A stretch of DNA of 64,000 nt. It comes from Anaerolineae bacterium. GTDB lineage: Bacteria > Chloroflexota > Anaerolineae > B4-G1 > SLSP01. Below, piece after piece: positions 10,864 to 34,000 of this stretch (positions are counted from its first letter, which is position 1; each line of letters starts with the position of its first letter). Position numbers and translations under genes: made by a program. The notes under the pieces are model-generated. The model did no database searches. It was given only the letters and a program-made list of their open reading frames with translations, and had not been told where the DNA came from. The stretch covers positions 27,705-91,704 of the forward strand of contig DAOTTS010000093.1 of the NCBI GenBank assembly GCA_034437735.1. The letters run 5' to 3'.

Positions 10864-11005
10864 TCGACTTATAACTCCTTACATAGGATAGCAACATGTG
10901 TATTATAGCCGAAGGGCTCCACGTGTCAACATTGCTGAAACCCAACATCCCTAATCATACCCTACCCTCTGATTTCTGACAACCCGAGGGTCCACATCAG
11001 AGCTA

Positions 11006-11068
11006 GAGCTCAAAGGTTTCCGTCCTTGACGAGAGGTCGCACGTTGTGCCAGCAAAACCTTTGAGCTC
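11006..11068. repeat. Perfect 14-bp inverted repeat (GAGCTCAAAGGTTT / AAACCTTTGAGCTC) flanking a 35-nt loop
   Basis: It is seen directly in the sequence. It lies in the 250-nt intergenic region between the smpB stop and the S1 gene start. There is no U-tract on either strand. Confidence 0.6.
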
Positions 11069-11114
11069 TGCGGCCCCCAATAATCTGCACTATACCCGCC
11101 CACCCACCATACGG

Positions 11115-11585: not shown

Positions 11586-11643
11586 GCCTCAATTCAGATT
11601 TGATCGTCAGGGTAGGGGACAGAAAAAGGACGATAGTTTCGCA

Positions 11644-13979: not shown

Positions 13980-14016
13980 AAAAAAGCCAAGCCCTAATTT
14001 CAACAAAGGGCTTGGC
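13980..14016 (-). terminator. Rho-independent terminator downstream of phnE
   Basis: The stem is GCCAAGCCCT...AGGGCTTGGC with an 11-nt loop. On the minus strand it is followed by TTTTTT (the A-tract at 13980-13985 on the plus strand). Confidence 0.6.
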
Positions 14017-14038
14017 TTAAGCGTTGATAGGAGAAACG

Positions 14039-15556
14039 TTACACGTACCGCTCCCGGATATCCGAACTCACATAGTCCAGGATCGCAACCGTAATCGCGA
14101 TAAACCACACCGCGATACCCGCCGAGCGGAACCGGAAGAGACGAATATACTGAATCAGCAGGAAGCCAATCCCCCCGCCCCCCACCAGACCGATCACGGT
14201 CGACATCCGGACGTTGATGTCCCACCGGTAAATCGAGAAGGAGACAAACGGCGGAATCATCTGCGGGATAACGGCAAATGCGATCGTCTGCAACTGATTG
14301 GCGCCGGTAGCCTGAATCGCCTCGATGGGACCGGGGTCGATGCCTTCAATCGCCTCGGAGTAAAGCTTACCCAACGCAGCGATCGTATGCACCGTCAGGG
14401 CCAGGATACCCGCAAAGGGCCCCAACCCCACCCACTGCGTCGCAATAATCGCCCAGATCATCGGCTCAATCGAACGGATAATATTCAGAATGGTGCGGAT
14501 CACATAATAGATCACCATCGTGATCCGGGAGCCGGACATCAAGTTGCGGGCGGCCAAAAAACTGACCGGCACCGCCAACACAATCCCAAACGCCGTCGCC
14601 ATCATGCCGAGAAAGATCGTCTCGATCATCTTCTCAATACTGAGCAGGAGCGGCTCGCTGGGCTTTTGAGCCCCAACCTCCGACGTCTGGCGCGCTTCAA
14701 CGTGGTGGACCTGTTCTCCCTTAGCACTGGGGGGGAGCAATCGATACGGCATTGTGATCGTCGTCTCGAAATCTCCCTGGTCATCGGTCGTCACGGTCAC
14801 GTATTGGCCCTCGTTTCGGACCTGAAACTCGTTGCCGATGGGGTCCTCCCACCAGATCTTGGTCTCGGTGTTGGGTTGAAAGTTTCGCCCCGTGAGCGTC
14901 AGTTTCGTACCGGGGACAATGTTACTGTCCTCATCCAAATCCGAAAGCTCACCGCACGTCGGCTCTGCCTTGAGGTAGGCATCCCCCTCAACCGGTTCCG
15001 GCGGCTCCGGCGGGGTGTCGTCGCACGGCACCTCAATCGGCGCACTGGCTCGCACCGTCTCCACGTCCCGGGTCAGGGCCGCCTCCCAAGGCCAAAGCAC
15101 CTGGCTGAGAATGGGCAGCGTGTCCGAAAGCTCCGTCACGGCTTTATAAAGATCAATTTCGCTGATTTGCCAGCCCAATGCAAAGAACAGCAGCATAATC
15201 AGGAGAAAGGGCGCGATACCAAACCCTTCCATCTGAGAATCTGCGTGACGATACGCGTCAATGACGACCCATACCCAGACCGCCAACGCGCCGAGCACGA
15301 CGAACCCGATAAAGAAGGGCCGCCGGTCAAGCGCCTCCACGAATTTAGCGACCGCCCCAACCTCACGTCGCGCCAGAAGGGAAACACGCCAGGCCAGAAG
15401 ACCGAGAATACTCACCACGGATCCCAACATCAGCAGTCCCCGCTGAATTTGCTTCGCCAGCACCTGTCCGAGCCCCGGAATCACGAGGGAACTCAAGGCA
15501 GCAACCGGCCCCGATACTAAGCTCTTACGATTACGCGCTCTATTGGTCGTCGCCAT
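14039..15556 (-). CDS. phnE: Phosphonate/phosphite-type ABC transporter permease (PhnE family) with extended N-terminal region
   Basis: The C-terminal 260 aa match the PhnE permease fold (EAIQATGANQLQTIAFAVIPQMIPPFVSFSIYRWDINVRMSTVIGLVGGGGIG). The N-terminal roughly 240 aa add about 4 TM helices and a roughly 150-aa extracytoplasmic Ig-like segment. Confidence 0.8.
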   Translation of the reverse strand: MATTNRARNRKSLVSGPVAALSSLVIPGLGQVLAKQIQRGLLMLGSVVSILGLLAWRVSLLARREVGAVAKFVEALDRRPFFIGFVVLGALAVWVWVVIDAYRHADSQMEGFGIAPFLLIMLLFFALGWQISEIDLYKAVTELSDTLPILSQVLWPWEAALTRDVETVRASAPIEVPCDDTPPEPPEPVEGDAYLKAEPTCGELSDLDEDSNIVPGTKLTLTGRNFQPNTETKIWWEDPIGNEFQVRNEGQYVTVTTDDQGDFETTITMPYRLLPPSAKGEQVHHVEARQTSEVGAQKPSEPLLLSIEKMIETIFLGMMATAFGIVLAVPVSFLAARNLMSGSRITMVIYYVIRTILNIIRSIEPMIWAIIATQWVGLGPFAGILALTVHTIAALGKLYSEAIEGIDPGPIEAIQATGANQLQTIAFAVIPQMIPPFVSFSIYRWDINVRMSTVIGLVGGGGIGFLLIQYIRLFRFRSAGIAVWFIAITVAILDYVSSDIRERYV

Positions 15557-17546: not shown

Positions 17547-17966
17547 TTAGCCCAGTTTGTCTTCGTCGCGAGGTCTTACGTTTTTTGACAGATAACGGCG
17601 GCCTTCATCCCGATCCTGAGATTCTTCCGTCGATTCAAAGACAGGATGAGGAACAATGAAAGGAGAACTGGATATCCCAACAGTGCCCACGTCCTCATCA
17701 GGCCGCTTGACGGCCGTCAGCATCCGCAGCTCCTCTTTCGCTTCTTCCAGCATCCGCTGTTCTTGAGCCAACCCGTCCTCCCAAACGGTCAATTCACGCT
17801 CAAGAATCTCGAGATCGACACGCTGCTCTCGTATTTCGGTTTCCATCTGCTCAAGGGTGGCCTCCCGCTCTTCCACCTCAACGCGCTGCTGCCACAGCAC
17901 AACAAAGAACACCACGGCCAGCAGAAAGAGGACCGCCCCACCCAGAAAGAGCACCGCATCAAACAT
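17547..17966 (-). CDS. Hypothetical membrane-anchored coiled-coil protein
   Basis: It has an N-terminal TM helix followed by an E/R/L-rich heptad-like region. Confidence 0.45.
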   Translation of the reverse strand: MFDAVLFLGGAVLFLLAVVFFVVLWQQRVEVEEREATLEQMETEIREQRVDLEILERELTVWEDGLAQEQRMLEEAKEELRMLTAVKRPDEDVGTVGISSSPFIVPHPVFESTEESQDRDEGRRYLSKNVRPRDEDKLG

Positions 17967-18042
17967 GACAAACTCACATCCTTTGTGAATCGTCGTAAAG
18001 AGAGAAAGCAGATGAATCGATAGCAGGGAAAGTCAAGTTGAC

Positions 18043-19740
18043 CTAGAGCATTCGGGTCGGATAAAGCTTTCCCTCAATAAAACCCCGATCCCGATAATAC
18101 TGGCGGGTACCAATCGCCGCAATGACGGCGAGGCCATCGTAACCGGCTCGCGTCGCAACCGACGCCGCCTCTTCAAGCAACTGCGTGCCCAGACCCCGGT
18201 GTTGGACGCCCTCCCCCCGCTCACCGAGTGCCTGCGCAGGACCGTAAATGTGCAGTTCGCGGACCATCGCCGCATTCCGGATCTCTGGCAGCGGCAGCTC
18301 ACGCCGGGGCCGATGAGGTAACGACAATCGCAGGAAGCCCGCCAGTTTTCCGTTCTCGGTCACATATTGCATGAAGTGCTCGGTCGTGACGTCGGTATCA
18401 TAGACCACCGGATCAAGCGTTACCGTATCAAGCGAGGCCGGCTCCCGGCCCCGGATCTCTCGGCAACGGACACACCGGCACTGCAAACCACGCATCGCCA
18501 TCTGCTGCTGAACGATCTGCCGCAGATTGCTTTTGGTCGTCCCGGCAACGATGTAGGGCGCAGGAATATCGCGCATCAAGCGATTGATCCGGCAATAAGG
18601 AGGGACGCTCTGCTTACAGTCAATCATCAGCTCGATCAGATCTGCTTCCGAATAAGGGGCATATTCACCCTCCGTCCAAAGACCGTAGAGTGCCGTATCC
18701 TCTAATAACGCCGTAGGATAGATCTTCAGTTCATCGGGCCGAAACGTCGGGTCCTCCCACAGCTTACGAAAATCCTCCAGGTCCGAAGCCGGCGTCGCGC
18801 CATAGAGGTTTGGCATCCAATGCAAGACAATCTTGAAGCCGCCCAGCCGTAATAGCCGGATAGCGCGTCGTGTATCATCGACGGTATGTCCCCGCCGATT
18901 CATCGCCAGAATCCGATCGTTAAGGCTCTGTGCGCCAAGCTGAACTTTGGTCACGCCGTGGCGGCGGAGTTCGACCACCGCCTCGGGTGATATACAGTCC
19001 GGACGCGTCTCGACCACTAACCCGACGTTCCGGTGCAGGGCGCGCTCATTTCTCTCAAAAGCTTCGTAGAGAGTCGCTGAAGGCGCCTCATTCATCGCGT
19101 CAAAGCACCGGCGCAGGAACCAGCGGCGGTAGCCCTCCGGATAAGCTGACCAGGTTCCGCCGAGAATCAGCAGCTCAACCTTATCAGTGGTGTGACCGAT
19201 GGCCTCCAGGGCCTCGATGCGAACCTGAGTCTGGCGATAGGGATCATACTCATGCTGCATCGCCCGCAAAACACCCGGCTCCCCATCGAGGTAGCTCTTC
19301 GGCGCAGCATCTTGCTCCGGACAGAAGATACAGTTTCCGGGACATGCATAAGGTTCGGTCAACACAGCAACCGGAGCCACACCGGATATCGTCCGGACCG
19401 GACGCCCTTGCAGCTCCCGTTCAATTTTGGAGCTCTTAGGGATCTCCCCGGCCTCCACGAATTCCCGATAGGCCCCCAATAATTGGGACTTGGCATAGGT
19501 CCCATGCTCACGTGGATACCGGCGCAGGACCGCCATAAGGTCCCCACCCTTATTGGGCATTGAGCGCACAGCTCGGAGCACCTTGAGGACCTTGCGGCGT
19601 TCCTTAGGATCGCTCAAATCAATACGTTCAGGTATACCACCTCTAGCCATACGATGATTATACCATGCGCAGCGAAGGGCAACACCCACAAAACGTCGAG
19701 GGGTCCGCATAAATAACGGGAGTTTCATCAAGGTTAGCAC
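18043..19740 (-). CDS. elp3: Elp3-family radical SAM / GNAT tRNA-modification enzyme (bacterial Elongator protein 3 homolog)
   Basis: It has a basic N-terminal region. The radical SAM cysteine motif is YACPGNCIFCPEQ (CX3CX2C in the Elp3-typical N-C-I-F/Y-C-P context). A C-terminal GNAT domain reads VRELHIYGPA...QHRGLGTQLLEEA. The start is uncertain: the GTG at 19740 or the ATG at 19728. Confidence 0.8.
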   Translation of the reverse strand: MLTLMKLPLFMRTPRRFVGVALRCAWYNHRMARGGIPERIDLSDPKERRKVLKVLRAVRSMPNKGGDLMAVLRRYPREHGTYAKSQLLGAYREFVEAGEIPKSSKIERELQGRPVRTISGVAPVAVLTEPYACPGNCIFCPEQDAAPKSYLDGEPGVLRAMQHEYDPYRQTQVRIEALEAIGHTTDKVELLILGGTWSAYPEGYRRWFLRRCFDAMNEAPSATLYEAFERNERALHRNVGLVVETRPDCISPEAVVELRRHGVTKVQLGAQSLNDRILAMNRRGHTVDDTRRAIRLLRLGGFKIVLHWMPNLYGATPASDLEDFRKLWEDPTFRPDELKIYPTALLEDTALYGLWTEGEYAPYSEADLIELMIDCKQSVPPYCRINRLMRDIPAPYIVAGTTKSNLRQIVQQQMAMRGLQCRCVRCREIRGREPASLDTVTLDPVVYDTDVTTEHFMQYVTENGKLAGFLRLSLPHRPRRELPLPEIRNAAMVRELHIYGPAQALGERGEGVQHRGLGTQLLEEAASVATRAGYDGLAVIAAIGTRQYYRDRGFIEGKLYPTRML

Positions 19741-19809
19741 ACCTCACCCTATGCTTCCGTAATCGCTATTTGTCTTGCGGACACAGGATTCTTTGCTATA
19801 CTCTAGACT

Positions 19810-20544
19810 ATGCATTCACAAACAGCTGGGGCACTCAGAGACATCAATCGTGCATTCTACGAAAAGTTCGCCGGCTCTTTCGACGCATCTCGCGCGCCGA
19901 CGGAGCCGGGACTCAAGCGTATTTTTCCCAGGATATCGCCAGGATCTCGGGTGCTGGATCTGGGATGTGGGCACGGGCGGCTTGCTGCCCTGCTTCCCCC
20001 AAACTGTACCTACCTGGGTGTGGACAACGCAGAGGCGATGCTGGCACTGGCCCAGGGTCACGTAGATCAAGAGGCTAAGGCCATTCAGGCTCAATTCATA
20101 GCTCTGGACCTGCTGGATTCGGATTGGGCGATCCACGTTCCCGGATCCTTCGATTGGATCGTGGTGCGCGCGGTATTGCATCACATCCCCGGATATGCGA
20201 ACCGTCGTAACTTGCTGGAGCAGTCCGCCACACTTCTTAACGCAGAGGGGCGCCTCCTCATCGCGAATTGGCAATTCCTCGAGATTCCCCGGCTGCGGCG
20301 CCGCGTGTTACCCTGGTCGGAGGTCGGGCTCAAGCCCACAGCGGTTGAGCCGGGGGATTACCTGCTGGATTGGAGACGAGACGGTTATGGACGTCGTTAC
20401 GTTCACCTCGTCAATGAGTCAGAGACACAGACACTGGCACACGACAGTGGCCTAACCGTTGTCGAGATGTTTCGGGCCGATGGTCACACCAACGACTTAA
20501 CGCTCTATGCCATACTGTCGGGAGCTTCGGGCAACAGCGTGTAG
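19810..20544 (+). CDS. Class I SAM-dependent methyltransferase, Trm9-like
   Basis: Motif I reads VLDLGCGHGRL. The C-terminal DWRRDGYGRRYVHLVNESE...NDLTLY resembles the Trm9 C-terminal RYYH.F..GEL...GNW region. It lies divergent to elp3. Confidence 0.7.
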   Translation: MHSQTAGALRDINRAFYEKFAGSFDASRAPTEPGLKRIFPRISPGSRVLDLGCGHGRLAALLPPNCTYLGVDNAEAMLALAQGHVDQEAKAIQAQFIALDLLDSDWAIHVPGSFDWIVVRAVLHHIPGYANRRNLLEQSATLLNAEGRLLIANWQFLEIPRLRRRVLPWSEVGLKPTAVEPGDYLLDWRRDGYGRRYVHLVNESETQTLAHDSGLTVVEMFRADGHTNDLTLYAILSGASGNSV

Positions 20545-20563: not shown

Positions 20564-22678
20564 TTGTTACACCGTTCAGTCAGAATACTTCGCACAAGAC
20601 GTCTGATCTGGATGCCTGCGCTCCTCCTGGTGAGCCTGGGGTTGATTGCGTGCAGTGCCGGTATATCCCAGCCGTTAATGAGCCTCGGTCCCATCGCAAC
20701 GATCAGCCAAAGAACCGTTGAGCCCCTATCCGCTCTACAAACGCCCGCCCCCCCTCGGGAGCCTGCGGTCAGACTAACGTATGATGAAGCCTCGACCAGC
20801 CTGATGGCAAAAGCTCAGCACTTCCCACCGAACACAAAGCTCGAATTCAAGCTTTGGATCGGCATTCGCCCAATCAAAGTAACTTATTATTGCACAACCG
20901 ACACCTATGGATATTGTGCCCGACCAATGGGGCTGATTAGAGATTACCCAGAGGCTACACACAGCGGGAAGGAACTGATCGCCTCGGCACAAAGCTGTGA
21001 CCATAAGGACCTTAAAGCCTTCAGCCTGCCGATCAGCTTTCGGTCGTCATCTCAGGGAATCAAGCGCTGTGAAGCGACCGCAACCCCTTCCCCCACGTCA
21101 CCTTTGCCCACGTCCACCCCACCCAGCGGCTCCACACCCATCTCTGAGCCCATCGATACGCCGACTGAGAAAACGCCCCCATCGGCGACGCCATCACCAA
21201 CCCCAGGACAAGCGACACAGCCCGCGTTTTGTGTGACGTGCACGCTTACGCCCGCATCAACACCCAGTCCCACCCCAAGCCCATCGATCACCCTGGTTCC
21301 CACACGCGTTCCCGCCAATCCCCATGGTTCTTCCCATACAACGACGCCCACGCCAATCCCTCTCGATAGCCACTTTCCCTACTGGCGTGGCGAATACTTC
21401 GACAACCCCCAACTACGAGGGGAACCGGCGCTGATCCAGGATGACGCCAACCTGGCTTTTAACTGGGGTGAAAACTCTCCCATTCCGGGGGCACTGCCCA
21501 AGAACCAATTTAGCGTGCGCTGGAGTCAGAGATTCGTTATCCGTCAGGAAGGACGCTACACGTTCTATCTGGATGCCGATGACAGTGCGGTGGTCCATCT
21601 GAACGGGGAGACGTTAATGAGTTATCACCTGAACAACCAGCAAGATCACGTCCAGATGGCGACCCGGTATCTCGCTCAAGGGGAAGAGCTCCACGCTGAA
21701 GTGGAGTACGTCGAGCATTGGGCGAACGCAAGCCTCAAATTCTGGTGGGAAGTCGCCACAGAGCCACCGTGCTGGCACGGTCATTATTTTGCCAATGCCG
21801 ACTTAGCAGGCGAGGTCGTCGCGCAAGAGGCGCTTTGCAGCGGCAATATCCGTAAACATTGGGGGACCGCCGACGCTTGGCCACCAACGTTAGGACCGAA
21901 TACGCACTTTTCCACGTGCTGGACCCGTGTCATCGAAGCTCCAATGTCCGACTCTGAGTATCGGCTCTGCCTTTACGTCAGGGACAGCGCCCGCCTATGG
22001 CTTGACCGGACGCTCTTGTTGAACAAACGCAGTATTGACGTCGAACCTCAATTCATATGCAGAGATGTCACCATCAATCCGGACACAGGGGTTCACGTTT
22101 TGCGACTGGACCACTATCGAAAGAGTCAAGGCAATGCGGTGCTGGGACTCTATTTCGTCGAACGCAAGCCCAACAGTCCTTGGACCGGTGCGTATTTTGA
22201 TAATGCTACCCTATCGGGTCCCCCCACCTTGGTGGGAACCGCTCATGAACTCAATATGCCCTCGGCCAAGCAAAGCCTCGATGCACAGGTCAGGGGGCGG
22301 GCATTCTCTTCCTTGTGGCAGAGAGAGGTGACCACGAATAAGGGGATCTATTACTTCTTCGCAAGACACGACGATGGCGTCCTGTTAACCGCAAACAGCG
22401 CGACAATGATCAACGACTGGTATCCTGGTGACATAAGAGAGCGGAAACACACCTATCTAGCAACGGGCGAGGAAGCACTGGATTTGGAGGTCAAGTACTA
22501 TCACGACCATCAGGGTGCTGATCCAAAACTACAGATCTGGTGGGAGAGAGCAACGCCCACCGCGACCGTGACCCCGACGCCCTCTATGACACCAACCCCG
22601 TCCCCCACGTTCCTACCGACCCACACCCCTTCCCTTACACCACAACCAACGATGACGTGCGTGACACCCGTGCCCTGA
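20564..22678 (+). CDS. Secreted protein with three PA14 domains and Pro/Thr/Ser-rich linkers
   Basis: It has a TTG start with an aggagg RBS 7 nt upstream and a signal or lipobox sequence LLLVSLGLIACSAG. Three repeats have the PA14 pattern G.YFDN..L.G.P...........W. The linkers are TPSPTSP-rich. Confidence 0.75.
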   Translation: MLHRSVRILRTRRLIWMPALLLVSLGLIACSAGISQPLMSLGPIATISQRTVEPLSALQTPAPPREPAVRLTYDEASTSLMAKAQHFPPNTKLEFKLWIGIRPIKVTYYCTTDTYGYCARPMGLIRDYPEATHSGKELIASAQSCDHKDLKAFSLPISFRSSSQGIKRCEATATPSPTSPLPTSTPPSGSTPISEPIDTPTEKTPPSATPSPTPGQATQPAFCVTCTLTPASTPSPTPSPSITLVPTRVPANPHGSSHTTTPTPIPLDSHFPYWRGEYFDNPQLRGEPALIQDDANLAFNWGENSPIPGALPKNQFSVRWSQRFVIRQEGRYTFYLDADDSAVVHLNGETLMSYHLNNQQDHVQMATRYLAQGEELHAEVEYVEHWANASLKFWWEVATEPPCWHGHYFANADLAGEVVAQEALCSGNIRKHWGTADAWPPTLGPNTHFSTCWTRVIEAPMSDSEYRLCLYVRDSARLWLDRTLLLNKRSIDVEPQFICRDVTINPDTGVHVLRLDHYRKSQGNAVLGLYFVERKPNSPWTGAYFDNATLSGPPTLVGTAHELNMPSAKQSLDAQVRGRAFSSLWQREVTTNKGIYYFFARHDDGVLLTANSATMINDWYPGDIRERKHTYLATGEEALDLEVKYYHDHQGADPKLQIWWERATPTATVTPTPSMTPTPSPTFLPTHTPSLTPQPTMTCVTPVP

Positions 22679-22700
22679 AGTCGCTAAGACTGGTATCCCT

Positions 22701-25700
22701 CTACGAGCTGGGCAAAGTCACCTGATAGATCGTGCTGTAGGTATCCTGATAGACGACCTCCAACACCCCTTGTTGAACCAGTGCTACGAATTTTGCCTCA
22801 GCCTCTGGGATCATATAGGCGCGCTCGTACGGAGTAACAATCACATAGGAGACGTCGTAGTCATCAAGGATCTCAGCGGCCTCCACCGGGGATGACCCAT
22901 TGTAGAAATAGCGGACGTCCTGCATTCGTGATTCAACGGTCCCCGCCGGCATAGCACCGCGTTGCTGGACTTGATGCCAACGCCAGGCCGCGACCGTCGG
23001 TAATCCTGTATAAACGCTAATCCGACTCCCCCAGAGATACTCGCGGGCACCGACTGCCTCCATGATCACGGGGCTCCCCTGGACATTCTCCTGGAGCCAA
23101 CGGATTACCTGATAGTCCGCCCAGAGCGAAATATCACTGCCATGCTCGTATTGAGTTGCATATGCCATAAAAACCATGCCGTCGAGTGTGGGAGGCGCTT
23201 CCGCAGCCCATCGATCCTGTGTCTTCGCCGGGATCGCCAAGGCGGGATAAAGACCGGTCCCCAGGATAAGAAGCGACATCACGATCACAGCGACCTCTTC
23301 GACACCCACGCGCTCTGTCTTTCCACCGGTCCAACGGTGAATCATGCGCTCGACAAAGACAGCAGCGCTCAGGCCTAATAACGTCCAGACCTGATACTGA
23401 AACTTAAACACGGTGTTCATCCGTCCAATGTCACCCTGAAGCACGACAATCTCTACCATCAGACTCAAAGCAAGCGCGGAACCGACCCAAATCCACAGGA
23501 GTCTGCGCCTTTGGTTGCGTGGCGAAACGACTTGCAAGGCAGCAAAGAGCCCTAATGGGACGACAATCCATCCGATGGGAGCTTTGAATAATGCAACGGG
23601 CACACTCAAACCCAGCAGCAAGAGGGCTACCGTCACGGCGACGATCCGCCATAATTGAGGTCGATTCTCAGGTGTCTCAAAGTAGGCGAGCCATCGCAGC
23701 CCCTCATGCCACACGCCATAGATGAGCGGAACAAGAAACTGCCCCAGCATCAGGAAGAATACCCCCAAAGGCGTGCGCGTACCCTTCCAAAGCTCAAACG
23801 TCGTATAGGTCACGATATAGTTAGCGACAAAAGGTCGGAATAACAATTCCGCCCCCAAAAACAAGAGAATGGGCGTGATCAGTAAGCGCCCCACCCACGC
23901 CAATGCGGTGGTTAAGGTTACGCGCCGTTCCGAAGAGGCTCCCGTGTCCACCCGAGCAGGAGGTGATAACGTCAAAGTGGGAGCCACTCCGAGAAGAGAA
24001 CCAAACGTCATCAGCACCAGGTACGTGGGATAGTCCCAGGTATTGGTCGCGCGCAAGGCACCGGCGACCAGCACAGCAAGCCCTAGACTACTCACCGGCC
24101 TGGGAAAGAACCGTTTCCACCCCGTGCTCTTCAACCGAACCGTGCCCAGCCCCCATTGCAGGGCGATGGCAAGCGCAACGTACGTCAGCGGCAGCGCCAT
24201 CATGTGCGCGTGAAGATCCGCATAGAGGAAAGTAAACGCTGGGAACTCATTGATCGCCCCGACCTCTCCCTCGGCAAACGGAATCAACCGCGTCGCATCC
24301 CAATACCACCATTCCGGTCGGAAGTTGAGTCCATGTCCCTCGATGACGACCTTCCAAAGGCCGACGAGTGCCGACACAACCTCGGGATATCCAGGAATCA
24401 AGCTCTCAAACTCGATACCGCCCACATCGACAAAGCCCTCAAAAATCAGCTGCGCTTCCCCAAGATTGCCGAGAATCACAATCAGGACCACGCCCCAGAG
24501 CCCGGCGCGTATCGATCGCCGGTCGCCCCCACCGGCAAGATTCGAAGCGACCGTATAGGCCCCCAGTCCTGTCATAGCCAAGAGCGAAGGCACCGCCAGA
24601 TTATAAGCAATGCTGGGAACAATCCCCAGTAACTCGGTCAATCCACCAAATAGGACGAAGCCGAAGTAATAGTAATTCATTTGGCCGCCGGCAAACCAGG
24701 GATCATAGGGTGGAAACCACGTAGACTTCATCACCGCATTGAAATAAGCGAAGTCCATTGGTTTCTCGCCGCCGCTCACCGGATGCCAAAGATCAGGATT
24801 GAGGTAACGCACCCCCACCCAGGCAAGATAGAGGCCCAAGAAGATGAGCTCGATCCACAGGATCTCGCGCCATCGCGAGCGGATAAAACGCACAAACTGC
24901 CGGCGGTTAAGCCAGAGGATAGTGCCACTGACCCCCAAACCCAGGAAGAGAAGACCCGCCAGTGTCGAGCGCACGCTGGGAACGATGTGGAGACTGGCCA
25001 AAAGCCACCCGACGTAGGCCCACACGAGCAGCCCTACCACTTTGGCCAACCCATAACCCCGCACTCGGAGGGCTGGCAGCATAGCATAGAGCCAGGGAAA
25101 AGCCATCCACCCAAGTACCAGCAAGAGCCCCCACCACAGCAGGACGGACAAGGCCGAGAACCGGTTATGGAGGGCCTCTGTGTTGAAGAGGTCAGACCAG
25201 GTACCGCCGGTCGCTTGTTCAATCTGAAGCTTAGGATCCAAAAGAAGGGAATCAGCCTTTGACTCAACATCCCCAAGAATGCGATTCCGTGTCGCTTCCC
25301 GAGGCGTCATCCACTGGACATCCTCCAGAAGCGAAGGAGGCAGCTGAGCCTCGGCGAGTTCGCGTGAGTACGTGGGAGTTTTCGCAAAGATTAGCACCGT
25401 CGGATGATCGTAGACGCTAAAAGCCTCTTCAGCCAGCGGAAAAGGCACTGAGGACTTGGCCTTGTTACTGTACTTCGCATTGACAAGATGAAAGGGTATT
25501 TCCTGATCCGGGAATTGCAGAGGCCCTAAGGAAGGATAGGAGACAAACTCAGCCCGGAGTTCATAGCCCAGATCCCCGCTGAACAAGGCTCGGTAATAAG
25601 CCGTGGTCAGGGGATACCGCATCGGCAGCCGTGGAATTGAGGCGTAGAGCCGGTTAGAGGAAAGCGCGATGAAGTCAGCCTCATCGAGCCAGTCAAGGAG

Positions 25701-27719
25701 ATACTGTCGCTTCTCCTCGGTATCGTTGTCATAATTATTCATCTGACCGGTAGGACTTGAGCTCAGATCCTGATACCAATTCCAGAACGGATCCTTGCCA
25801 TCGATCCGCAAAGGCAAAGGATCGTCCCAATGTTCGTTAGCAATCACGGACGTGCGCAGCGTCACGGCTTGGCCCCGCAGGAGAGAGAGTTCGACCTTGG
25901 CATATTCGCCGGCAGAGACCCTCACCGGCGGGTCGAACGTCATCCGAAGCGATCGAACATTGGGATCGTTGAAATTCAGGGAAGCGACCGCAGGCTGCCC
26001 ATTGACCGTAACTTCGATTTCACGAGGGCCGGGCACCCCCTTGGGATCGATCTTATTGACCTGCGCGGCCTCTACCCAGACAGTATCCGCTACCTCAACG
26101 CCCCCACCCACCCCAGACGTCACGACGGAGAGTTCCGTATTTGGCCTTATGGGTATCTGCAACTGATCTTTGGTCATCAGATCCAGCGTGACCGAGGTCG
26201 GGATATTGTCGTACATCCAGCGCGAAGCCTTCACCCGGGTAACGGGCTTCAGATAAATATGCAAGAATGCCCAGGCCCATAAAGCCGTCGTCAGAAAAAT
26301 CAGAGCCGGCAAAACACAAAGGACGTAACGCCCATAGGTTCTCCACCGCGCTTTCGCCACTGTTCCACGCGCGCCAACCCGAGACCCCCATGCCAGCTCA
26401 AGTAGCAGCACGGCGGCAAAAAGCGCAAAGAACGGATAGACCGGCAGCAGATAACGCATTGATTTGACCCACTGGGTCGATTGGTAAAGAAAGAACCCCG
26501 TACTCCAAAGCCACGGAATGAGAATGCGATGGGGAAGTGTGCGCCGGACAGAATCGGTCCACATTTTAACCAAGCGCCAGCCTAACCATGCCCACCCGAT
26601 GCAGGCCGTCACGCCTAGGGGTAATCCCATTCCCCAGAAGACCATATTGCGCAGCGGGAAGAGGATCGGGGCTCTTGCCGTCCACTGATGCCCATAAGGC
26701 ACATCCTGCAACCCACTCATCAGCCTACGAATATCCTTGATCGTCGCAATCCACTGAAGGTTAGGACTGACACCAAAGAAACCGGGGCCCATAAAAGCAT
26801 AAGGCTGTGCGATCCGAAACGCGAGAGCGGCGACAATACCGCTACCTATCAGCAAGAGTATCCGACGTAACGATAATCGGAAATGCGGACCTTCTCCAGA
26901 ATCAAAATGCATAACGCCCGTCAACCCGACGATAAGCGAAAGTGGCCACACGCTGATCTTCGAAGCAACCGCTAGGCCGGTCATAAGACCGGCGAGAAGA
27001 ATCAACCCACCAGGTTTGCGCTTGCCCGCAGCCAAAACGCACAGCAAGAGCGTCCATACCACAAAGACCGTCGCAAAACTATCGACAACAAAGAAATGGG
27101 CGTGCTGAATGGGGAGCACGGCAAACGCATAAAGCCCACCGGCTAGAAGAGAGAGCCGATTGCCAAAGAGAGAGCGGGCCAGCAGGATCAATCCCAACAA
27201 CGCAGCCACATCAGCCAGCGCAGAAAGGCCCCGACCTACGTGATGAATACCGGCGTATCCGGTGTAGGTGCCCGGCAAGCAAGCACCCGCATCTGCCGGC
27301 GTTTGACCACACAACACAGCATCGGTCCAGCGCCCCACCGCTCGGGTGACGAAGATCGGCAGCGTCCCATAGACGTAATTCACAAACTGATCGTAATTCA
27401 TAGGATTGATGGGGGAATCAGCGGTATCCCAGTAGAGACGCAAGCAGGCACCGAAATCCTCACAAATCGGCGCCCCGCTCTCTGCCTTCGCCTCACCGGG
27501 AAAGCGAAGCGTCCCTGCAACCATCGTGAGGTAACGCTCGTCCGGGTGCAGGTGGGTCCCCTCCCCCCAATCCAGGTTGACAAAACGGACGAGAGCGCCA
27601 AGGACCAGCAGAACCACCAGGGCCAATCGATAGCGAACTTGTCGATTCGGTCCTTGAGGAGTACTCATTGATTGAGGATGCCTAAACGGAGATTCTGTTA
27701 TCAAATGTTGTTCGGTCAT
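22701..27719 (-). CDS. Very large (1,672 aa) polytopic membrane protein, GT-C superfamily-like (PMT/ArnT-like N-terminal module plus additional TM modules)
   Basis: The first loop reads VRFVNLDWGEGTHLHPDERYLTMV (a DE motif after TM1, as in GT39/GT83). More than 25 TM helices are predicted. The C-terminal domain is soluble. Confidence 0.7.
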   Translation of the reverse strand: MTEQHLITESPFRHPQSMSTPQGPNRQVRYRLALVVLLVLGALVRFVNLDWGEGTHLHPDERYLTMVAGTLRFPGEAKAESGAPICEDFGACLRLYWDTADSPINPMNYDQFVNYVYGTLPIFVTRAVGRWTDAVLCGQTPADAGACLPGTYTGYAGIHHVGRGLSALADVAALLGLILLARSLFGNRLSLLAGGLYAFAVLPIQHAHFFVVDSFATVFVVWTLLLCVLAAGKRKPGGLILLAGLMTGLAVASKISVWPLSLIVGLTGVMHFDSGEGPHFRLSLRRILLLIGSGIVAALAFRIAQPYAFMGPGFFGVSPNLQWIATIKDIRRLMSGLQDVPYGHQWTARAPILFPLRNMVFWGMGLPLGVTACIGWAWLGWRLVKMWTDSVRRTLPHRILIPWLWSTGFFLYQSTQWVKSMRYLLPVYPFFALFAAVLLLELAWGSRVGARGTVAKARWRTYGRYVLCVLPALIFLTTALWAWAFLHIYLKPVTRVKASRWMYDNIPTSVTLDLMTKDQLQIPIRPNTELSVVTSGVGGGVEVADTVWVEAAQVNKIDPKGVPGPREIEVTVNGQPAVASLNFNDPNVRSLRMTFDPPVRVSAGEYAKVELSLLRGQAVTLRTSVIANEHWDDPLPLRIDGKDPFWNWYQDLSSSPTGQMNNYDNDTEEKRQYLLDWLDEADFIALSSNRLYASIPRLPMRYPLTTAYYRALFSGDLGYELRAEFVSYPSLGPLQFPDQEIPFHLVNAKYSNKAKSSVPFPLAEEAFSVYDHPTVLIFAKTPTYSRELAEAQLPPSLLEDVQWMTPREATRNRILGDVESKADSLLLDPKLQIEQATGGTWSDLFNTEALHNRFSALSVLLWWGLLLVLGWMAFPWLYAMLPALRVRGYGLAKVVGLLVWAYVGWLLASLHIVPSVRSTLAGLLFLGLGVSGTILWLNRRQFVRFIRSRWREILWIELIFLGLYLAWVGVRYLNPDLWHPVSGGEKPMDFAYFNAVMKSTWFPPYDPWFAGGQMNYYYFGFVLFGGLTELLGIVPSIAYNLAVPSLLAMTGLGAYTVASNLAGGGDRRSIRAGLWGVVLIVILGNLGEAQLIFEGFVDVGGIEFESLIPGYPEVVSALVGLWKVVIEGHGLNFRPEWWYWDATRLIPFAEGEVGAINEFPAFTFLYADLHAHMMALPLTYVALAIALQWGLGTVRLKSTGWKRFFPRPVSSLGLAVLVAGALRATNTWDYPTYLVLMTFGSLLGVAPTLTLSPPARVDTGASSERRVTLTTALAWVGRLLITPILLFLGAELLFRPFVANYIVTYTTFELWKGTRTPLGVFFLMLGQFLVPLIYGVWHEGLRWLAYFETPENRPQLWRIVAVTVALLLLGLSVPVALFKAPIGWIVVPLGLFAALQVVSPRNQRRRLLWIWVGSALALSLMVEIVVLQGDIGRMNTVFKFQYQVWTLLGLSAAVFVERMIHRWTGGKTERVGVEEVAVIVMSLLILGTGLYPALAIPAKTQDRWAAEAPPTLDGMVFMAYATQYEHGSDISLWADYQVIRWLQENVQGSPVIMEAVGAREYLWGSRISVYTGLPTVAAWRWHQVQQRGAMPAGTVESRMQDVRYFYNGSSPVEAAEILDDYDVSYVIVTPYERAYMIPEAEAKFVALVQQGVLEVVYQDTYSTIYQVTLPSS

Positions 27720-27757: not shown

Positions 27758-29206
27758 CTATAATCTTGCGCCGCTGATCTCAGGACGTTGAAGGGCCATA
27801 TCTCCACCCAGCGATCCCTGACCAAAATCCGCGTCTCCCATAATCTCATCCAGGATTTCAGATCCAGATCTTCCAGTTCGACCACTGATCGTAACGCTTA
27901 AGTCTCGCCGGAAAGCCCGCGTGAGATCCTCACCCGTCGCATAATAGACCAAAGCCATCGACTGAACAGCATTCGCAATAGCATAACGCGGCTCAATGCG
28001 ATCTAAATCATCAAAGAAAAATCCACAACTGACAAACATACGCTGTCGGTGATATTGAGCTTTGAGAAGACTTAAGACCTGCTTCCGAACGTAAGGAGTA
28101 AAATGCCCGAGTTGATGCTGAGAAAGAAACTGGTCTGAACCCACCTGATTCATAATCACCCGGATATAATCATCCCGCAGACGCCAAGGGGCGACATCGC
28201 GTCGACCTACAACATCGACGTAGACTTCATCAATGTCACGGGAAAGGTTATCGAGGGCGCGACGTAGTGCCCCCTTCCAGTGCCCACACCCGGGTGTACA
28301 AGCGCAACCGGTCAACCAACGCGCAAGCTGATGGCTACAACTCCAAGCGGAGTTATCAATGATCTCAATCTCGTGGGTAGGCGGATGATCCTGAAGATAA
28401 CGTCCCAGCGTCGTCACCGCATAGGAATCGCGCACTCCCGGATTCAGGAGCTTTTTGAGCACCTTGACGCCCTGTGCCTGGTGATGTCCAAAGGTTTCCC
28501 CGTCCGTCGCAATAAGCGTAAGGTTACCACGACCTTCTTCCCTAAGCGCCCGATTGATCCAGGCGCTCGCGTGTTCGGGAGCAGGCATCTGGAAAGAAAG
28601 GAAGTTAGAAAGCGCATCATTCCTTACAAACACTGCAATTGAACGATCCCCAGAAAGCGAGACGCGATAGGGCCCCGCCCCGTCGGAAAGCTCACCTTTC
28701 ACTTGCGAGTCGGATAAAATCACGAACGAAAGGCCCGACTCAGCCACCACATCGAGGGTCTCACGATCAACCGCCATCTCCGGCAACCAAATACCCTGCG
28801 GACGATACCCAAAACGATACAGGAAGCTTGCAATACCCCACTGAATTTGACAACGCTTGTCACGACCCCGCGCCAGGGGTAAAATCGTGTGATGGACCGA
28901 TTGGGCAATCGCGTTACTACTCCCCCAACGCTTGTAGTGAGACTGTGCCGACTTGACGACCATTTCATAAACCGGTTGCGCACGCGCTTCCATCCAACGG
29001 GCTAAAGTACCACCTAGATTGAAACTGATCTGCTTAAACCCATCGATCTCTGCAATCGGTCGATAGCATTCCGCCGTAATCCGCTGATTCCAATTCCGAT
29101 AAGGAGCCGCCGACCTTTCGACACAATACTCACCCGTGAAAGGATCCTCACGGGGGGGTTGATAGAAATGTCCATGCACACATAGAAATGACTTATGAAA
29201 TCTCAT
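27758..29206 (-). CDS. Glycoside hydrolase family 57 protein (alpha-glucan active)
   Basis: The N-terminus reads HGHFYQPPREDP and the nucleophile region reads GIWLPEMAVD. This is the GH57 W-L-P-E signature. Confidence 0.8.
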   Translation of the reverse strand: MRFHKSFLCVHGHFYQPPREDPFTGEYCVERSAAPYRNWNQRITAECYRPIAEIDGFKQISFNLGGTLARWMEARAQPVYEMVVKSAQSHYKRWGSSNAIAQSVHHTILPLARGRDKRCQIQWGIASFLYRFGYRPQGIWLPEMAVDRETLDVVAESGLSFVILSDSQVKGELSDGAGPYRVSLSGDRSIAVFVRNDALSNFLSFQMPAPEHASAWINRALREEGRGNLTLIATDGETFGHHQAQGVKVLKKLLNPGVRDSYAVTTLGRYLQDHPPTHEIEIIDNSAWSCSHQLARWLTGCACTPGCGHWKGALRRALDNLSRDIDEVYVDVVGRRDVAPWRLRDDYIRVIMNQVGSDQFLSQHQLGHFTPYVRKQVLSLLKAQYHRQRMFVSCGFFFDDLDRIEPRYAIANAVQSMALVYYATGEDLTRAFRRDLSVTISGRTGRSGSEILDEIMGDADFGQGSLGGDMALQRPEISGARL

Positions 29207-29229: not shown

Positions 29230-29261
29230 AATAAAAAAGCGCAGCCATTTGGAAGCTGCGT
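29230..29261 (-). terminator. Rho-independent terminator downstream of glgA
   Basis: The minus-strand stem is ACGCAGC-TTCCAAATG-GCTGCGC, followed by TTTTTTATT. Confidence 0.6.
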
Positions 29262-29368: not shown

Positions 29369-30868
29369 TTACACCTTCGCGCTTTCCTCGTGGAGCTGCT
29401 TAGCCCTTTTGTAGAGGTCCACGTAAGCTTGAGCTGCCATCTTCCATGAGAAATCACGCTTCATCACCCGAGTTTGAAGAGCCGACCATCGCTGGGTTTG
29501 TCGGTGATCAAAGGCACGCGCTAGCACATCAGCCAGCGCTTCCGGGGTGAATGAGTCAAAACCGAATCCCGTGCCGCGTTCCGGTTGCCGAACGACATCG
29601 ATCACGACATCGCGCAGCCCTCCGGTCCGCCGAACAATTGGAACAGCACCGTATCGCATCGCGATCATAACACTCGTACTAGCAGCCTCTTCACGACTGG
29701 GCATTAGGAAAAAATCAGATCCACCATATAGACGGCGTGCCAAACGGTCATCGAAGCGATTGACAAATCGAATGTAAGGGGGATAGCGCTTTTGGAAAGC
29801 CCGCAAATCCTGAGCGTGTTCCTCGCCCCCCGTGCCAAGGAGAACAAACTGATACGTCCGCGATCGCATAAGCGTTTCCAGTGCCGGCACAAGCAACTCA
29901 ATCCCTTTGATCGGATCAAGCCGCGTTACCATACTGACGAGCGGGACATCACGATCCGTGGGTAACTGCAACTCACGCTGCAGCGCCGTTTTGTTGACCT
30001 CCCGCATATGGAGCGATGCAACATCAAAGGACTGCGCCAAAGCCGAATCGGTCGCGGGGTTCCATAGATCAGTATCAATACCGCTCAACACGCCGAAAAG
30101 CCGATCCTCGCGATCGCGCAAAATACTGCTAAGCTGACCACCGACTTCCGGCGTCGTGATCTCCTCCGCATAGGTTGGACTCAACGTACTTAGGAGATCA
30201 GAATGAGCGATACCTTGAGCCAACCAATTAACTTTGCCGGGATTCTCCACCTCAAGGTGTGGAATCTGTCCCATTCGGCCAAAATCCAGGATCAATCGCC
30301 CACACACCCCTTGGTAAGCTAAACTATGAATCGTCATCAAGGTTGCAATCTCGCCGAAGGGTTCGTGATCTCGACCGTAGATATCGATCCAAGTCGGAAT
30401 CGGGCACGTATGCCAATCGTTCACATGAATGATGTCAGGACGCCACGTCATATGAGAAACAGCCGAAATGACGGCCCGAGAGAAGAACACAAACCGCTGT
30501 GGGTCATCGTTAAACCCATAGACGTGCTCTCGATGTCCGAAGTACCGATCGTTATAAATCATATAGACCGGGACCTGCTGAGAATCAATCTCAAGTAAGT
30601 GAACGCGCTCATCCTTCGAACCCAACGGAACGGGAAAGGACATCTTAACCTTCGATTTTTGGCCCGAAGGGCTCTCATAGCGAGGAAGCATAAGCCGTAC
30701 GTCCGCACCTAGCTTCTTGAGCTCACCAGGGAGAGAACCCGCAAAATCAGCTAAGCCACCGACTTTTGAGAATGGCGTTGCCTCTGTGACGACAAATAGA
30801 ACCTTCAGTTTAGCATTCATACTTCCACCCACGAATCTCTTTGTCGGACCCCACATAGACGTGACCAA
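29369..30868 (-). CDS. glgA: Glycogen synthase (GT5, GlgA)
   Basis: It reads KVLFVVTEATPFSKVGGLADFAGSLP and has a C-terminal GT-B fold. The probable true start is the ATG at 30820 (MNAKLKVLFV). Confidence 0.9.
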   Translation of the reverse strand: MVTSMWGPTKRFVGGSMNAKLKVLFVVTEATPFSKVGGLADFAGSLPGELKKLGADVRLMLPRYESPSGQKSKVKMSFPVPLGSKDERVHLLEIDSQQVPVYMIYNDRYFGHREHVYGFNDDPQRFVFFSRAVISAVSHMTWRPDIIHVNDWHTCPIPTWIDIYGRDHEPFGEIATLMTIHSLAYQGVCGRLILDFGRMGQIPHLEVENPGKVNWLAQGIAHSDLLSTLSPTYAEEITTPEVGGQLSSILRDREDRLFGVLSGIDTDLWNPATDSALAQSFDVASLHMREVNKTALQRELQLPTDRDVPLVSMVTRLDPIKGIELLVPALETLMRSRTYQFVLLGTGGEEHAQDLRAFQKRYPPYIRFVNRFDDRLARRLYGGSDFFLMPSREEAASTSVMIAMRYGAVPIVRRTGGLRDVVIDVVRQPERGTGFGFDSFTPEALADVLARAFDHRQTQRWSALQTRVMKRDFSWKMAAQAYVDLYKRAKQLHEESAKV

Positions 30869-31037
30869 CGCTCAAACAGCACAAAGCTATTATAGCGGAA
30901 TACGACCGGACGGCAATTTGGCACAACAAAAAACCCATGCTATGATCCGAGAAGGTCGGGGTCGAATAGGCCCATTTGATTTCCTTGCGTGTCTCAAAGC
31001 TGAGCCAGCTACTCTCTATGTTATGAAGGAGTTGCGT

Positions 31038-34000
31038 ATGGTGATGAACGCTCACGCACGGGACCGACAACGCACGCCCCCTCATCGAAGACCGTCACGT
31101 GCTTACCTCAAACCGCTTGGTTCCCCTTACATTATCGTTTCCTATCTGTTAGGTTTGCTAGCCCTCGGATTCTGCATAGAGGGGTTAAGACCAACGAACC
31201 ATCATCAGTCAATTCAAGCTGCACGCACAAAGAGCCAAACATTCAGCAGGGCGTCGAGTGCCCCTAGCGTCATCGTCAACGAAGTCGCCTGGGGAGGCAC
31301 CGAGGCCAGTGCTTTCGATGAATGGATTGAGCTTTACAATGTCACCGGAAAACCCCAATCTCTGGAAGGTTGGACGCTTGTTGCGAGTGACGGAAGCCCC
31401 GACATCCAGCTATCCGGTGAAATCCCGGCGTACGGATACTTCGTGATCGAGCGAACGGATGATGACACGATTCGCGACCGTCCAGCCGAACTGATAACCT
31501 CCTTCGGATCGGGCCTCAACAACAACGGCGAACAGCTGAACTTGATCGATCCCGCCGGCGATTTGATCGATACCGCCAATGGTAACGGAGGACCCTGGCC
31601 TAATGAAGATACCGGCGCATCCCCTACGTATCGGTCAATGGAACGTATCGATCCTAGGGCCATGGACCTGGACACACATTGGCAGAGTAACGACAGGAGC
31701 TTGACCTGCGGACAGGACGCCGATGGCAACCCCCTCAATGGCACCCCGGGTGCGATCAATGCGGCCTATTACCCATACTTCTCTCAGCACTCGGATCTTG
31801 CGATAGCCTCTGACTTCCCGGCGATGGTTCAAGCCGGCGACCGTATAACTGCTTATATCGATCTCCTAAATCGAGGTGGGCTTACCGCAACCCAGGTTAC
31901 ACTCACGGCGAGCCTACCGCCGAGCATCCATTACGAAGCTCAAAAGAGCGAGCGCTTTACCTTCAACGTGGCCGATCCCCAAACGCTTATCTGGCATCGA
32001 GCTCACCTGCATCCCGACACAGTCAATCCCTGCCGAATCACCCTGACCTTGCGTATGTCTCCTGCGCTTACTATTGGAACCAAGATGATGACCCGCTTAT
32101 CCGTGACTACGACCTCACCCGAGCTAAGAAACGATAATAACATCATGACGGCCAGCACCACAATTCAGGGCGTATCAGCGGATCTTATCCTAACCAAGAC
32201 GGGTATGACCGAGATCAAAGTCTTGAATCCACCCGAACTGTTCACTTATCACCTGAGCATCCATAATCGAGGGCCCGATGTCGCTTCTGGCGTATGGATC
32301 ACCGATCGGCTACCGGGAAATCTCAGGCTTTTCACGCAAACGAGTCCATTCTCTTTCACCTGGAATCGGACACTCTTGACGTGGCACGTGGGAGACTTAA
32401 GTCCCGATACAACCTATCCGATCACGCTGACGACCACATTCAACGATGGCTTGACCGAGTCTCTTACTAACCGAGCTGGCGCCAAGGCAGCAACGCCGGA
32501 TCCAGAGCCGGCCAACAACCAAGCGACCTGGAGAACCCAAGCCATCCCTACAGTACTCATATCCAGTGTGCTTTACGACGGCTACGCGTACCGGGATGCT
32601 GATGAAGCGGTCGGCATCACAAATATGGGCCCCCACCCTCTCTCGCTTCGTGATTGGGAACTCTGCAAAGATCGCTCAGGGCTTATCGATTGTGAACCTC
32701 TCCCCGCTATCACCGTAACCGAATCATCAGAAGCATGGATAACCAAGGACGCAGAGGCCTTTGCCGAGACGTTTGGATTCGCTCCTAAGGCCCAAATGGA
32801 GAACTGGCTGGGGCTGACGAACACAGGAGATGAAGCCCTATTGCGGAATCCAGACCATCAATGGGTGGATACGCTCGTCTACGGTGCCGGCACGTCGACC
32901 GTGCCCGGTTGGTCAGGGGATTCGGTAAAAGCTTACTATAACTTCCTCCGGGGGGAAACCGGGCAAATTCTCCATCGCATATCTGATGAACGGACCGGAT
33001 TGCCGGCTTACGACACCGACACGTGTCAAGATTGGATCCAGACCCCCGAAGACGCTGGAAACGGACGGCGAGTTCTATATCCAGGGTGGGATATGACGCC
33101 CCTCTTTTTCCCCCTATCCACAACAGAAACAGCCTCCACAACCCTGGCCATTGCGCCGGATCACGGATTCGAGTTCCTCAAAGACAGCCTGGAACGGGCA
33201 AACCACACGATCTTCATCGAGGTTTACACGCTGCGTCATCCCGACTTGATTGCGACATTGGCAGCAAAGGCCGCCGAGGGGGTTGAGGTCAAGGTGTTAC
33301 TGGAAGGATCTCCCGTTGGACTCGGCGTAAACTCACCCGAATGGCAGACTGAGTTACATGCATGTGGCGAAATCGAAGCGCACGGAGGCGAAGCCTGGTT
33401 TATGATTCACCGGCCTGAGGACCGCATTTATAATCGTTACAGCCATCTTCACCCCAAAATGATCATCATCGATGAAGAATGGCTGATCCTCAGTACCCAG
33501 AACCTCACGTATAGCAGCCTACCATCCGACGATAAACGGGATGGGACGGCAGGCACCCGAGGCGCTATCATCATAACTAACGCCCCTTCGGTCGTCCAAC
33601 GCGCGACAGAGATTATGACTCTTGACCTCGACCCGCAGAATCACGCCGACCTTCTCAGATGGAATCAGGGCTATTGGGAGACTTACGGTCCCGCCAACCC
33701 ACACGCCGTCGATCTATCCACGCCAAATTGGATCAGCTATACGCCCAAATTCACGGCCCCACTCAAGATAGCGGGAGACGTGCACTTTGAGCTCTTCACG
33801 GCACCGGAAGCCGCCTTACGCCAAACGGATGCGCTCCTAGGTTTGATCAGACAGGCCGGCTCGGGAGACAGCATCGATATTGAGCAGACGTATGAACACG
33901 TAGCGTGGGGAGAGGATCCCATCCTGGAGCCGAATCTTCGCCTACAAGCTTATCTGGAGGCCGCACATCGAGGCGCTCACGTGCGCATTCTGCTGAATGG

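Follow-up and report, generated by a model that had tools for sequence, protein, structure and literature searches.

This locus raises the question of what a 1,672-aa membrane protein of an Anaerolineae bacterium (Chloroflexota) does, and whether the surface protein encoded beside it is its partner. The stretch of DNA analyzed (assembly GCA_034437735.1, contig DAOTTS010000093.1, positions 27,705 to 91,704 of the forward strand; 64,000 nucleotides, called the window from here on) carries the gene of this protein, hereafter the giant, in convergent orientation with the gene of a protein with three PA14 domains, and 22 bp separate the two stop codons. An earlier model-made annotation of the same letters (the original prediction) had placed both genes in this way, and the two open reading frames (ORFs) were confirmed. 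It had also proposed that the pair belongs to a dedicated surface-glycan or protein O-glycosylation system. Domain content, predicted folds, residue conservation and neighborhood statistics were computed for the locus and its relatives. In the reading favored here, to which a probability of about 0.6 is given, the giant is a fusion of two GT-C modules that assembles an envelope glycoconjugate, and the PA14 protein is a separate product rather than a dedicated partner.

Two Predicted GT-C Modules in One Polypeptide

The gene of the giant and the parts of its product were mapped as follows.

22701..27719, minus strand: gene of the 1,672-aa bimodular GT-C membrane protein, a predicted fusion of PMT_2 and DUF2298/Chlor_Arch_YYY (ORF; Pfam and NCBIfam matches; homologs; AlphaFold2 models)
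26205..27719, minus strand: aa 1–505, PMT-like GT-C transmembrane core of the N module
27537..27542, minus strand: acidic pair D60-E61 of the N module, putatively catalytic, in its first extracytoplasmic loop (HLHPDERY; invariance)
25836..26192, minus strand: aa 510–628, beta-sandwich resembling carbohydrate-binding modules (CBMs)
25320..25802, minus strand: aa 640–800, conserved alpha/beta soluble domain between the membrane modules (secondary structure of the AlphaFold2 model; invariant residues)
23250..25157, minus strand: aa 855–1490, DUF2298/YYY transmembrane core of the C module, a predicted divergent GT-C
24753..24794, minus strand: aa 976–989 (DLWHPVSGGEKPMD), acidic loop conserved in the C module and putatively catalytic (invariant residues)
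24660..24677, minus strand: aa 1015–1020, NYYYFG, the 'YYY' signature of TIGR03662 (invariance; regular expression)
22704..23222, minus strand: aa 1500–1672, C-terminal globular domain resembling that of the oligosaccharyltransferases AglB/STT3

Three profiles matched the giant above their cutoffs: Pfam PMT_2 (aa 164–262; 31.2 bits, cutoff 26.1), Pfam DUF2298 (PF10060; aa 899–1448, profile positions 1–488 of 488; 353 bits, cutoff 27.8) and NCBIfam TIGR03662, Chlor_Arch_YYY (aa 857–1668, profile positions 3–727 of 727; 518 bits, cutoff 300). Searches with the first two had been suggested in the original prediction. The protein was modeled with AlphaFold2 in two halves, each with a 30-sequence alignment, and the predicted local distance difference test and template modeling scores (pLDDT and pTM) were 83.4 and 0.86 for aa 1–850, and 86.0 and 0.90 for aa 851–1672. 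A GT-C transmembrane fold was recognized in the modeled giant, and a globular domain of the AglB/STT3 type was found after the last transmembrane helix. By hydropathy, about 15 helices make up the membrane part of the C module. As read from the models, the order of the helices would allow the two acidic loops and the two soluble domains to lie outside the membrane.

Residue conservation was judged over 30 homologs of 44–76% identity. The DE motif that had been noticed in the first loop corresponds to D60-E61 in HLHPDERY, directly after the first transmembrane helix, and H58-P59-D60-E61 were invariant in all 30; a catalytic role for the pair is suggested by analogy with the DE motif of PMT enzymes. 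The acidic loop of the C module, in which D976, H979, G983, G984, E985, K986, M988 and D989 were invariant, may likewise be catalytic. Judged by conservation, both modules thus appear to carry acidic residues in the first extracytoplasmic loop, a feature of the GT-C superfamily. Also invariant were N1015, Y1016, Y1017, Y1018 and G1020, and we take YYYxG to be the motif that defines the TIGR03662 family. Other invariant polar motifs of the C module were EFP (1158–1160), DxHxH (1168–1172) and NTWDYPTY (1226–1233). Many residues of the alpha/beta domain were invariant as well (e.g., in SNRLYASIPRL and AEEAFSVYDHP), and no specific fold match was found for aa 640–800. Profile matches, confident models and fold all support the GT-C-like character that had been claimed for the giant, and the prediction of two GT-C modules agrees with the proposal that it combines several activities.

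By eye, HPDERY/NYVYG of the N module resembled GGEKPMDFAY/NYYYFG of the C module, as after an internal duplication. The two modules showed no sequence-profile similarity, with an hhalign probability of 0.3%, and their paralogy is therefore unsupported at the sequence level. This dissimilarity is also what would be expected if only one module were enzymatic, the DUF2298/YYY half (or, less probably, the N half) being a non-catalytic unit of GT-C fold that serves as a scaffold or in substrate binding or lipid handling. PIG-U and GAB1 of the glycosylphosphatidylinositol transamidase are precedents for such units. The same reading is favored by the absence of a WWDYG-type motif (WWD[YWF]G, regular expression search of the whole giant) and of a conserved DxD-type motif in either membrane core. 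It is nevertheless an unlikely one, opposed by the invariant D976, E985 and D989, which lie where the GT-C catalytic acid sits, by the EFP, DxHxH and NTWDYPTY motifs, and by the standalone DUF2298 genes of the operons described below, which fit an autonomous enzyme.

The Fusion and Its Operon in Anaerolineae

More than 100 homologs of 1,590–1,810 aa with both PMT_2 and DUF2298 were among the matches listed, nearly all from metagenome-assembled genomes (MAGs) of Anaerolineae or other Chloroflexota, under the labels 'DUF2298 domain-containing', 'YYY domain-containing' and 'glycosyltransferase family 39'. In a scan in which each species was represented by one genome, relatives turned up in at least 594 species. 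An exhaustive family search with the C module as query yielded 6,452 clusters (50% identity) at E ≤ 1e-3 and 2,274 at E ≤ 1e-30; the best clusters were mostly of 1,400–1,850 aa, with the match beginning near residue 650–1,000, and representatives of 2,400–2,750 aa occurred. Apparent '2,500-aa' homologs at distant loci were discarded, these long tblastn extents being the fusion together with an adjacent standalone DUF2298 gene.

The giant is an ordinary member of this large uncharacterized Anaerolineae family. It shares with other DUF2298/TIGR03662 proteins the full-length match above cutoff, the NYYYxG motif, the PMT_2 and DUF2298 architecture and the length, and it cannot be distinguished from them, except that its clade lacks the usual multi-GT-C operon at the locus. 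The size of the giant, which the original prediction had regarded as abnormal, is therefore not so: fusions of ~1,650–1,800 aa are normal across Anaerolineae.

Neighborhoods were compared at 80 loci encoding homologs of the giant. In most Anaerolineae loci, the fusion was found in a tight same-strand operon with a GT4 glycosyltransferase, a methyltransferase and three further GT-C proteins. Locus L062 serves as the example:

5214..6374: GT4 glycosyltransferase
6337..7215: S-adenosylmethionine (SAM) methyltransferase
7212..9917: PMT_2 protein
9932..15286: PMT_2 and DUF2298 fusion, 1,784 aa
15287..17863: standalone DUF2298 protein
17863..19776: second PMT_2 protein

The intergenic gaps in this operon were −38 to +14 bp, and such overlapping or abutting frames argue for a real operon. 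Similar operons were found in L017, L028, L029, L039, L053, L066, L077, L079 and other loci. Over the whole set, a PMT_2 protein was encoded directly upstream of the fusion in 34 loci and directly downstream in 42. LPG_synthase_TM and an NAD-dependent epimerase often preceded the operon, which was often followed by a pair of extracytoplasmic function (ECF) sigma70 factor and zf-HC2 anti-sigma factor and by a 1,000–1,490-aa protein with PMT_2 and an NHL propeller. A run of five or six GT-C modules is thus encoded in an operon that is class-wide and apparently undescribed.

This context is the strongest evidence, although indirect, for a place of the fusion in a multi-step extracytoplasmic glycan pathway. 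Since the fusion shares an operon with a GT4 enzyme, a methyltransferase and three GT-C proteins in most lineages, stepwise assembly of an envelope glycoconjugate is its likeliest role. At the locus of the giant, this multi-GT-C context has been lost in the lineage of the window.

The contigs of homologs L023, L033 and L065 had been assigned by binning to Methanosarcinales, Cellvibrionaceae and Pleurocapsa, but their operon context is typical of Anaerolineae; L023, for example, corresponds gene for gene to L029. They are probably MAG binning errors rather than cases of horizontal transfer.

Comparison With Known Glycosyltransferases

The loop-1 DE motif is shared with the protein O-mannosyltransferases of family GT39 (yeast Pmt1/2/4 and mycobacterial Pmt), but the giant is only 12–15% identical to these enzymes. 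It matched Pfam PMT_2 alone and not PMT (PF02366), a precomputed match to which is carried by a few of its homologs. Moreover, Pfam detected in it no MIR domain, which is lumenal in eukaryotic PMTs; in place of that domain, the membrane core is followed by a CBM-like beta-sandwich, and the protein includes a second, fused GT-C module.

With STT3, AglB and PglB (GT66), the giant shares the type of C-terminal globular domain placed after the last transmembrane helix. It differs from them in having no Pfam STT3 match (E ≤ 0.1), no WWDYG and no detectable sequence similarity, and in the larger number of helices in the membrane part of its C module. The DUF2298 module could be conceived as a bacterial oligosaccharyltransferase-like enzyme, and the fusion as a two-headed protein-glycosylation machine that decorates Pro/Thr-rich surface proteins of Anaerolineae, for example the PA14 lipoprotein. 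This reading is considered very unlikely. If it were true, the module would represent a previously unrecognized type of oligosaccharyltransferase, and PMT-like O-glycosylation would be combined with oligosaccharyltransferase-like activity in one protein.

The mycobacterial enzymes AftD, EmbA/B/C and AftA/B resemble the giant as very large GT-C proteins in which a membrane core is combined with extracytoplasmic CBM-like domains, and they work one after another on a polysaccharide of the envelope. Three of them, AftA, AftB and AftD, were among the matches. Each of these enzymes has one GT-C core, however, against two in the giant, and there is no sequence similarity.

The Triple-PA14 Surface Protein

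The second gene of the convergent pair encodes a protein with the following features.

20564..22678, plus strand: triple-PA14 (lipo)protein gene (ORF of 704 aa with TTG start; three Pfam PA14 domains; orthologs P0121 and P0123)
20603..20659, plus strand: hydrophobic core of the signal peptide (aa 14–32) with lipobox LIAC (aa 27–30) (hydropathy and regular expression)
20684..21073, plus strand: N-terminal domain of ~130 aa (aa 41–170) with four cysteines
21074..21388, plus strand: Pro/Thr-rich linker, aa 171–275, 62% P+T+S (composition; equivalents in L002, L009 and L081)
21383..22549, plus strand: three tandem PA14 domains (Pfam; own hidden Markov model; repeat alignment with a W-G-YF-N-L-G motif)
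22559..22675, plus strand: C-terminal Pro/Thr-rich tail, aa 666–704, 69% P+T+S (composition; kept in orthologs)

The Pfam PA14 profile (PF07691) matched three stretches of the 704-aa protein with 96.4 bits (cutoff 24). The domains span aa 274–396, 403–530 and 540–662 and scored 119, 88 and 100 bits with our own PA14 hidden Markov model (HMM). A single N-terminal hydrophobic segment was found by hydropathy, and LIAC, which follows its core, fits the lipobox pattern tested, [LVI][ASTVI][GAS]C. The lipoprotein with three PA14 repeats and Pro/Thr-rich linkers of the original prediction was thus recovered. In the L081 ortholog, LTAC stands in the place of LIAC; the L002 and L009 proteins have the N-terminal hydrophobic segment, and no canonical lipobox was found in them.

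Orthologs P0121 and P0123 are 84 and 60% identical to the protein, and full-length orthologs were found in nearest relatives only. The L081 ortholog, of 60% identity, begins MLSIFLVGLLLTAC, at the equivalent of M17. By this comparison, translation probably starts at the internal ATG of M17 (nt 20612), which gives a product of 688 aa. The N-terminal Cys domain had no Pfam or NCBIfam match; a sequence-divergent counterpart precedes the Pro/Thr-rich linker in L002 and L009.

Proteins with several PA14 domains are plentiful in Chloroflexota, Anaerolineae included, and their accessory domains (LTD, SH3 and GLEYA) are shuffled. The window protein resembles other PA14-domain surface proteins in its three canonical domains above threshold, and differs from them in its unmatched N-terminal Cys domain and in having orthologs in nearest relatives only. 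It is probably a separate, fast-evolving surface lipoprotein with predicted glycan-binding ability.

A Variable PA14 Slot Beside the Giant

In the clade of the window, in which giants are 49–76% identical, the gene order is glgA, GH57, giant, a convergent SAM methyltransferase gene and Elp3. The synteny anchor in this order was:

19810..20544, plus strand: SAM methyltransferase gene (Pfam; tblastn synteny table)

A triple-PA14 gene was found between the giant and the methyltransferase gene in L081 (giant 76% identical to that of the window), in L002 and L009 (both 53%), and in the contig with P0004 and P0124. When a PA14 HMM built from 398 domains was searched up to 10 kb around the homologs, PA14 domains were detected in two of the 80 loci (L002 and L009), and in none of the 66 more distant loci. 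The synteny of close relatives was read by tblastn. Of the 11 close syntenic loci with a readable downstream flank, nine lacked the PA14 gene; there the methyltransferase gene directly followed the giant at 32–514 bp, a gap that leaves no space for a PA14 gene. The slot of the PA14 gene is therefore variable: the gene is a lineage-specific neighbor in a few related genomes and no conserved or dedicated partner of the giant. These counts speak against the dedicated PA14–giant system that had been proposed.

The giant and the PA14 lipoprotein might still form a dedicated pair, in which the PMT-like N module would O-glycosylate the PA14 protein in its Pro/Thr-rich linkers, as sole substrate or as one of several secreted proteins. 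There is a parallel in actinobacterial Pmt, which mannosylates Pro/Thr-rich regions of secreted lipoproteins. Such a pair would agree with the invariance of the DE pair, with linkers of 62–69% P+T+S that are kept in orthologs, and with the same convergent slot in the four relatives named above. In another Chloroflexi genome, moreover, a PMT2/PA14 fusion protein is tabulated beside a DUF2298 gene (PMC8756737). The distribution of the PA14 gene weighs more heavily, and the pairing is judged improbable: the genes are convergent and therefore not co-transcribed, Pro/Thr-rich linkers, like multi-PA14 proteins, are generic features of Chloroflexota, and the giant has neither a MIR domain nor a PF02366 match.

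The Adjacent Glycogen Genes

Upstream of the giant, the following features were found.

27758..29206, minus strand: GH57 and DUF3536 alpha-glucan enzyme gene (Pfam), same strand as the giant and 38 bp upstream of it
29240..29260, minus strand: terminator-like hairpin between glgA and GH57 (7-bp stem, five GC pairs, T-run), in a gap of 162 bp
29369..30868, minus strand: glgA, ADP-glucose glycogen synthase (Glyco_transf_5, 219 bits; TIGR02095, 477 bits, cutoff 328)

The glgA and GH57 genes form a glycogen module. GH57 and the giant are possibly co-transcribed, whereas the hairpin after glgA suggests separate transcription of that gene; in a promoter and terminator scan, counts were not above those of shuffled controls, and this hairpin is suggestive by position only.

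It could be supposed from this arrangement that the giant works with the glycogen genes, for example by attaching or extending a surface alpha-glucan. The 38-bp same-strand gap, with no hairpin in it, would suit such a link, as would the order glgA, GH57, giant, kept in L081 and about a dozen of the 80 loci: GH57 lay directly upstream of the giant in 12, with glgA as well in 11 of these. The adjacency is limited to the clade of the window, however, and elsewhere in the class the fusion operon is without GlgA or GH57. De novo clustering had made GlgA appear as a class-wide neighbor, upstream of the fusion in 43 loci. This impression arose from single linkage: cluster members of ~390 aa are generic GT4 enzymes, and true GlgA stands next to the fusion only in the close clade. 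GlgA and GH57 make up a self-sufficient cytoplasmic module that works on ADP-glucose, whereas the donors of GT-C enzymes are lipid-linked and are used outside the membrane. The hairpin after glgA also argues against a functional tie, which is regarded as highly improbable.

Other Genes of the Window

Two further glycosyltransferase-related genes were located at a distance from the giant.

7675..10035, plus strand: second GT-C-like membrane protein (PTPS_related/YfhO-like; Pfam), 12.7 kb from the giant
448..1461: GT2 gene, 20 kb from the giant

The first, which the original prediction had described as GT-C-like, matched PTPS_related with 34.4 bits (cutoff 26.4); YfhO reached 24.4 bits, below its cutoff, and there was no NCBIfam match. 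This gene is outside any operon with the giant. As for the GT2 and GT4 genes reported for the window, the GT2 gene was confirmed and the supposed GT4 proved to be GlgA. The proposal that these other genes belong to one system with the giant did not hold, since they are glycogen genes or, as with the GT2 gene, lie far off with housekeeping genes in between: Elp3, a phosphonate ABC transporter, an S41 protease and an S1 RNA-binding protein stand between the giant and the GT2 and GT-C-like genes.

A Ser/Thr protein kinase gene (5826..6806, minus strand) and the gene of an FHA/Trans_reg_C regulator (6924..7628, plus strand) precede the GT-C-like gene at 7675..10035, with the regulator 46 bp upstream of it. 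The regulator and the GT-C-like gene recur together in close relatives, e.g., in L047, and phospho-signaling may control an envelope glycosyltransferase here (5826..10035).

On the other side of the glycogen genes, 30717..34907 (plus strand) encodes a 1,396-aa protein with three lamin-tail, two PLD-like and two DUF11 domains, syntenic in close relatives. Its called start overlaps the start of glgA by about 150 bp, so its real start probably lies further downstream; in L081, the corresponding gap is 316 bp of intergenic sequence. A 2,016-aa bacterial alpha-2-macroglobulin (MG2, bait region, A2M and bMG10) with four N-terminal Big_5 domains is encoded at 37881..43931 (minus strand). The AAA/STAND-like NTPase beside it (36522..37811) reaches 76–84% identity in relatives in which the giant itself is conserved at only ~53%. 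Finally, 46197..51434 (minus strand) is a signaling cluster with an FHA and zinc-ribbon protein, a DnaJ-VWA protein, a PP2C phosphatase and a fusion of a Ser/Thr kinase with a PQQ-type beta-propeller.

Discussion

We infer the donor type, acceptor, catalytic residues and topology of the giant as follows. One polypeptide would comprise two GT-C-fold glycosyltransferase modules. The N module would be PMT-like, with Asp-Glu in the first outer loop, followed by the CBM-like beta-sandwich and the alpha/beta domain; the C module (DUF2298/'YYY') would be a very divergent GT-C with its own acidic outer loop and an AglB-like globular end. By analogy with all GT-C enzymes that have been characterized, the sugar donor of each module would be polyprenyl-phosphate-linked and would be used at the outer face of the cytoplasmic membrane. 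The sugar would be passed to a growing envelope glycan or a secreted protein, with the acceptor held by the soluble domains, CBM-like and AglB-like. In this way, the fusion would carry out stepwise extracytoplasmic assembly of a cell-envelope glycoconjugate.

Several observations weigh against this assembly role or against the separateness of the PA14 protein. No meaningful match to PDB sequences was obtained by phmmer with the giant or by hmmsearch with the 30-sequence profile, and no functional study of the DUF2298/TIGR03662 family was found in the literature, where matches to 'YYY domain' referred to Y_Y_Y, a domain of Bacteroides sensors that is unrelated. The giant has no neighboring gene in the window for a polyprenyl-phosphate sugar synthase or a flippase. 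Distant operons are also flanked by the conserved housekeeping genes LepA, TlyA and Cmk, so that plain synteny accounts for part of the neighborhood conservation. The slot beside the giant holds a PA14 gene, in the same orientation, in five genomes with giants of only 53–76% identity to that of the window. Because of this recurrence and the published PMT2/PA14 fusion beside DUF2298, some functional link between PA14 protein and giant is left open, weakly.

For the window itself, these results are mostly a clarification, and their interest is greater for the family than for the giant. To our knowledge, the envelope glycans of Chloroflexota are uncharacterized, and the envelopes of these bacteria are poorly understood; DUF2298, for its part, comprises thousands of clusters with no assigned function. 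This analysis adds the prediction of DUF2298 as a GT-C with an AglB-like domain, its habitual fusion to a PMT-like GT-C and the class-wide operon. Together, these findings make a testable hypothesis of a class-wide extracytoplasmic glycan-assembly line.

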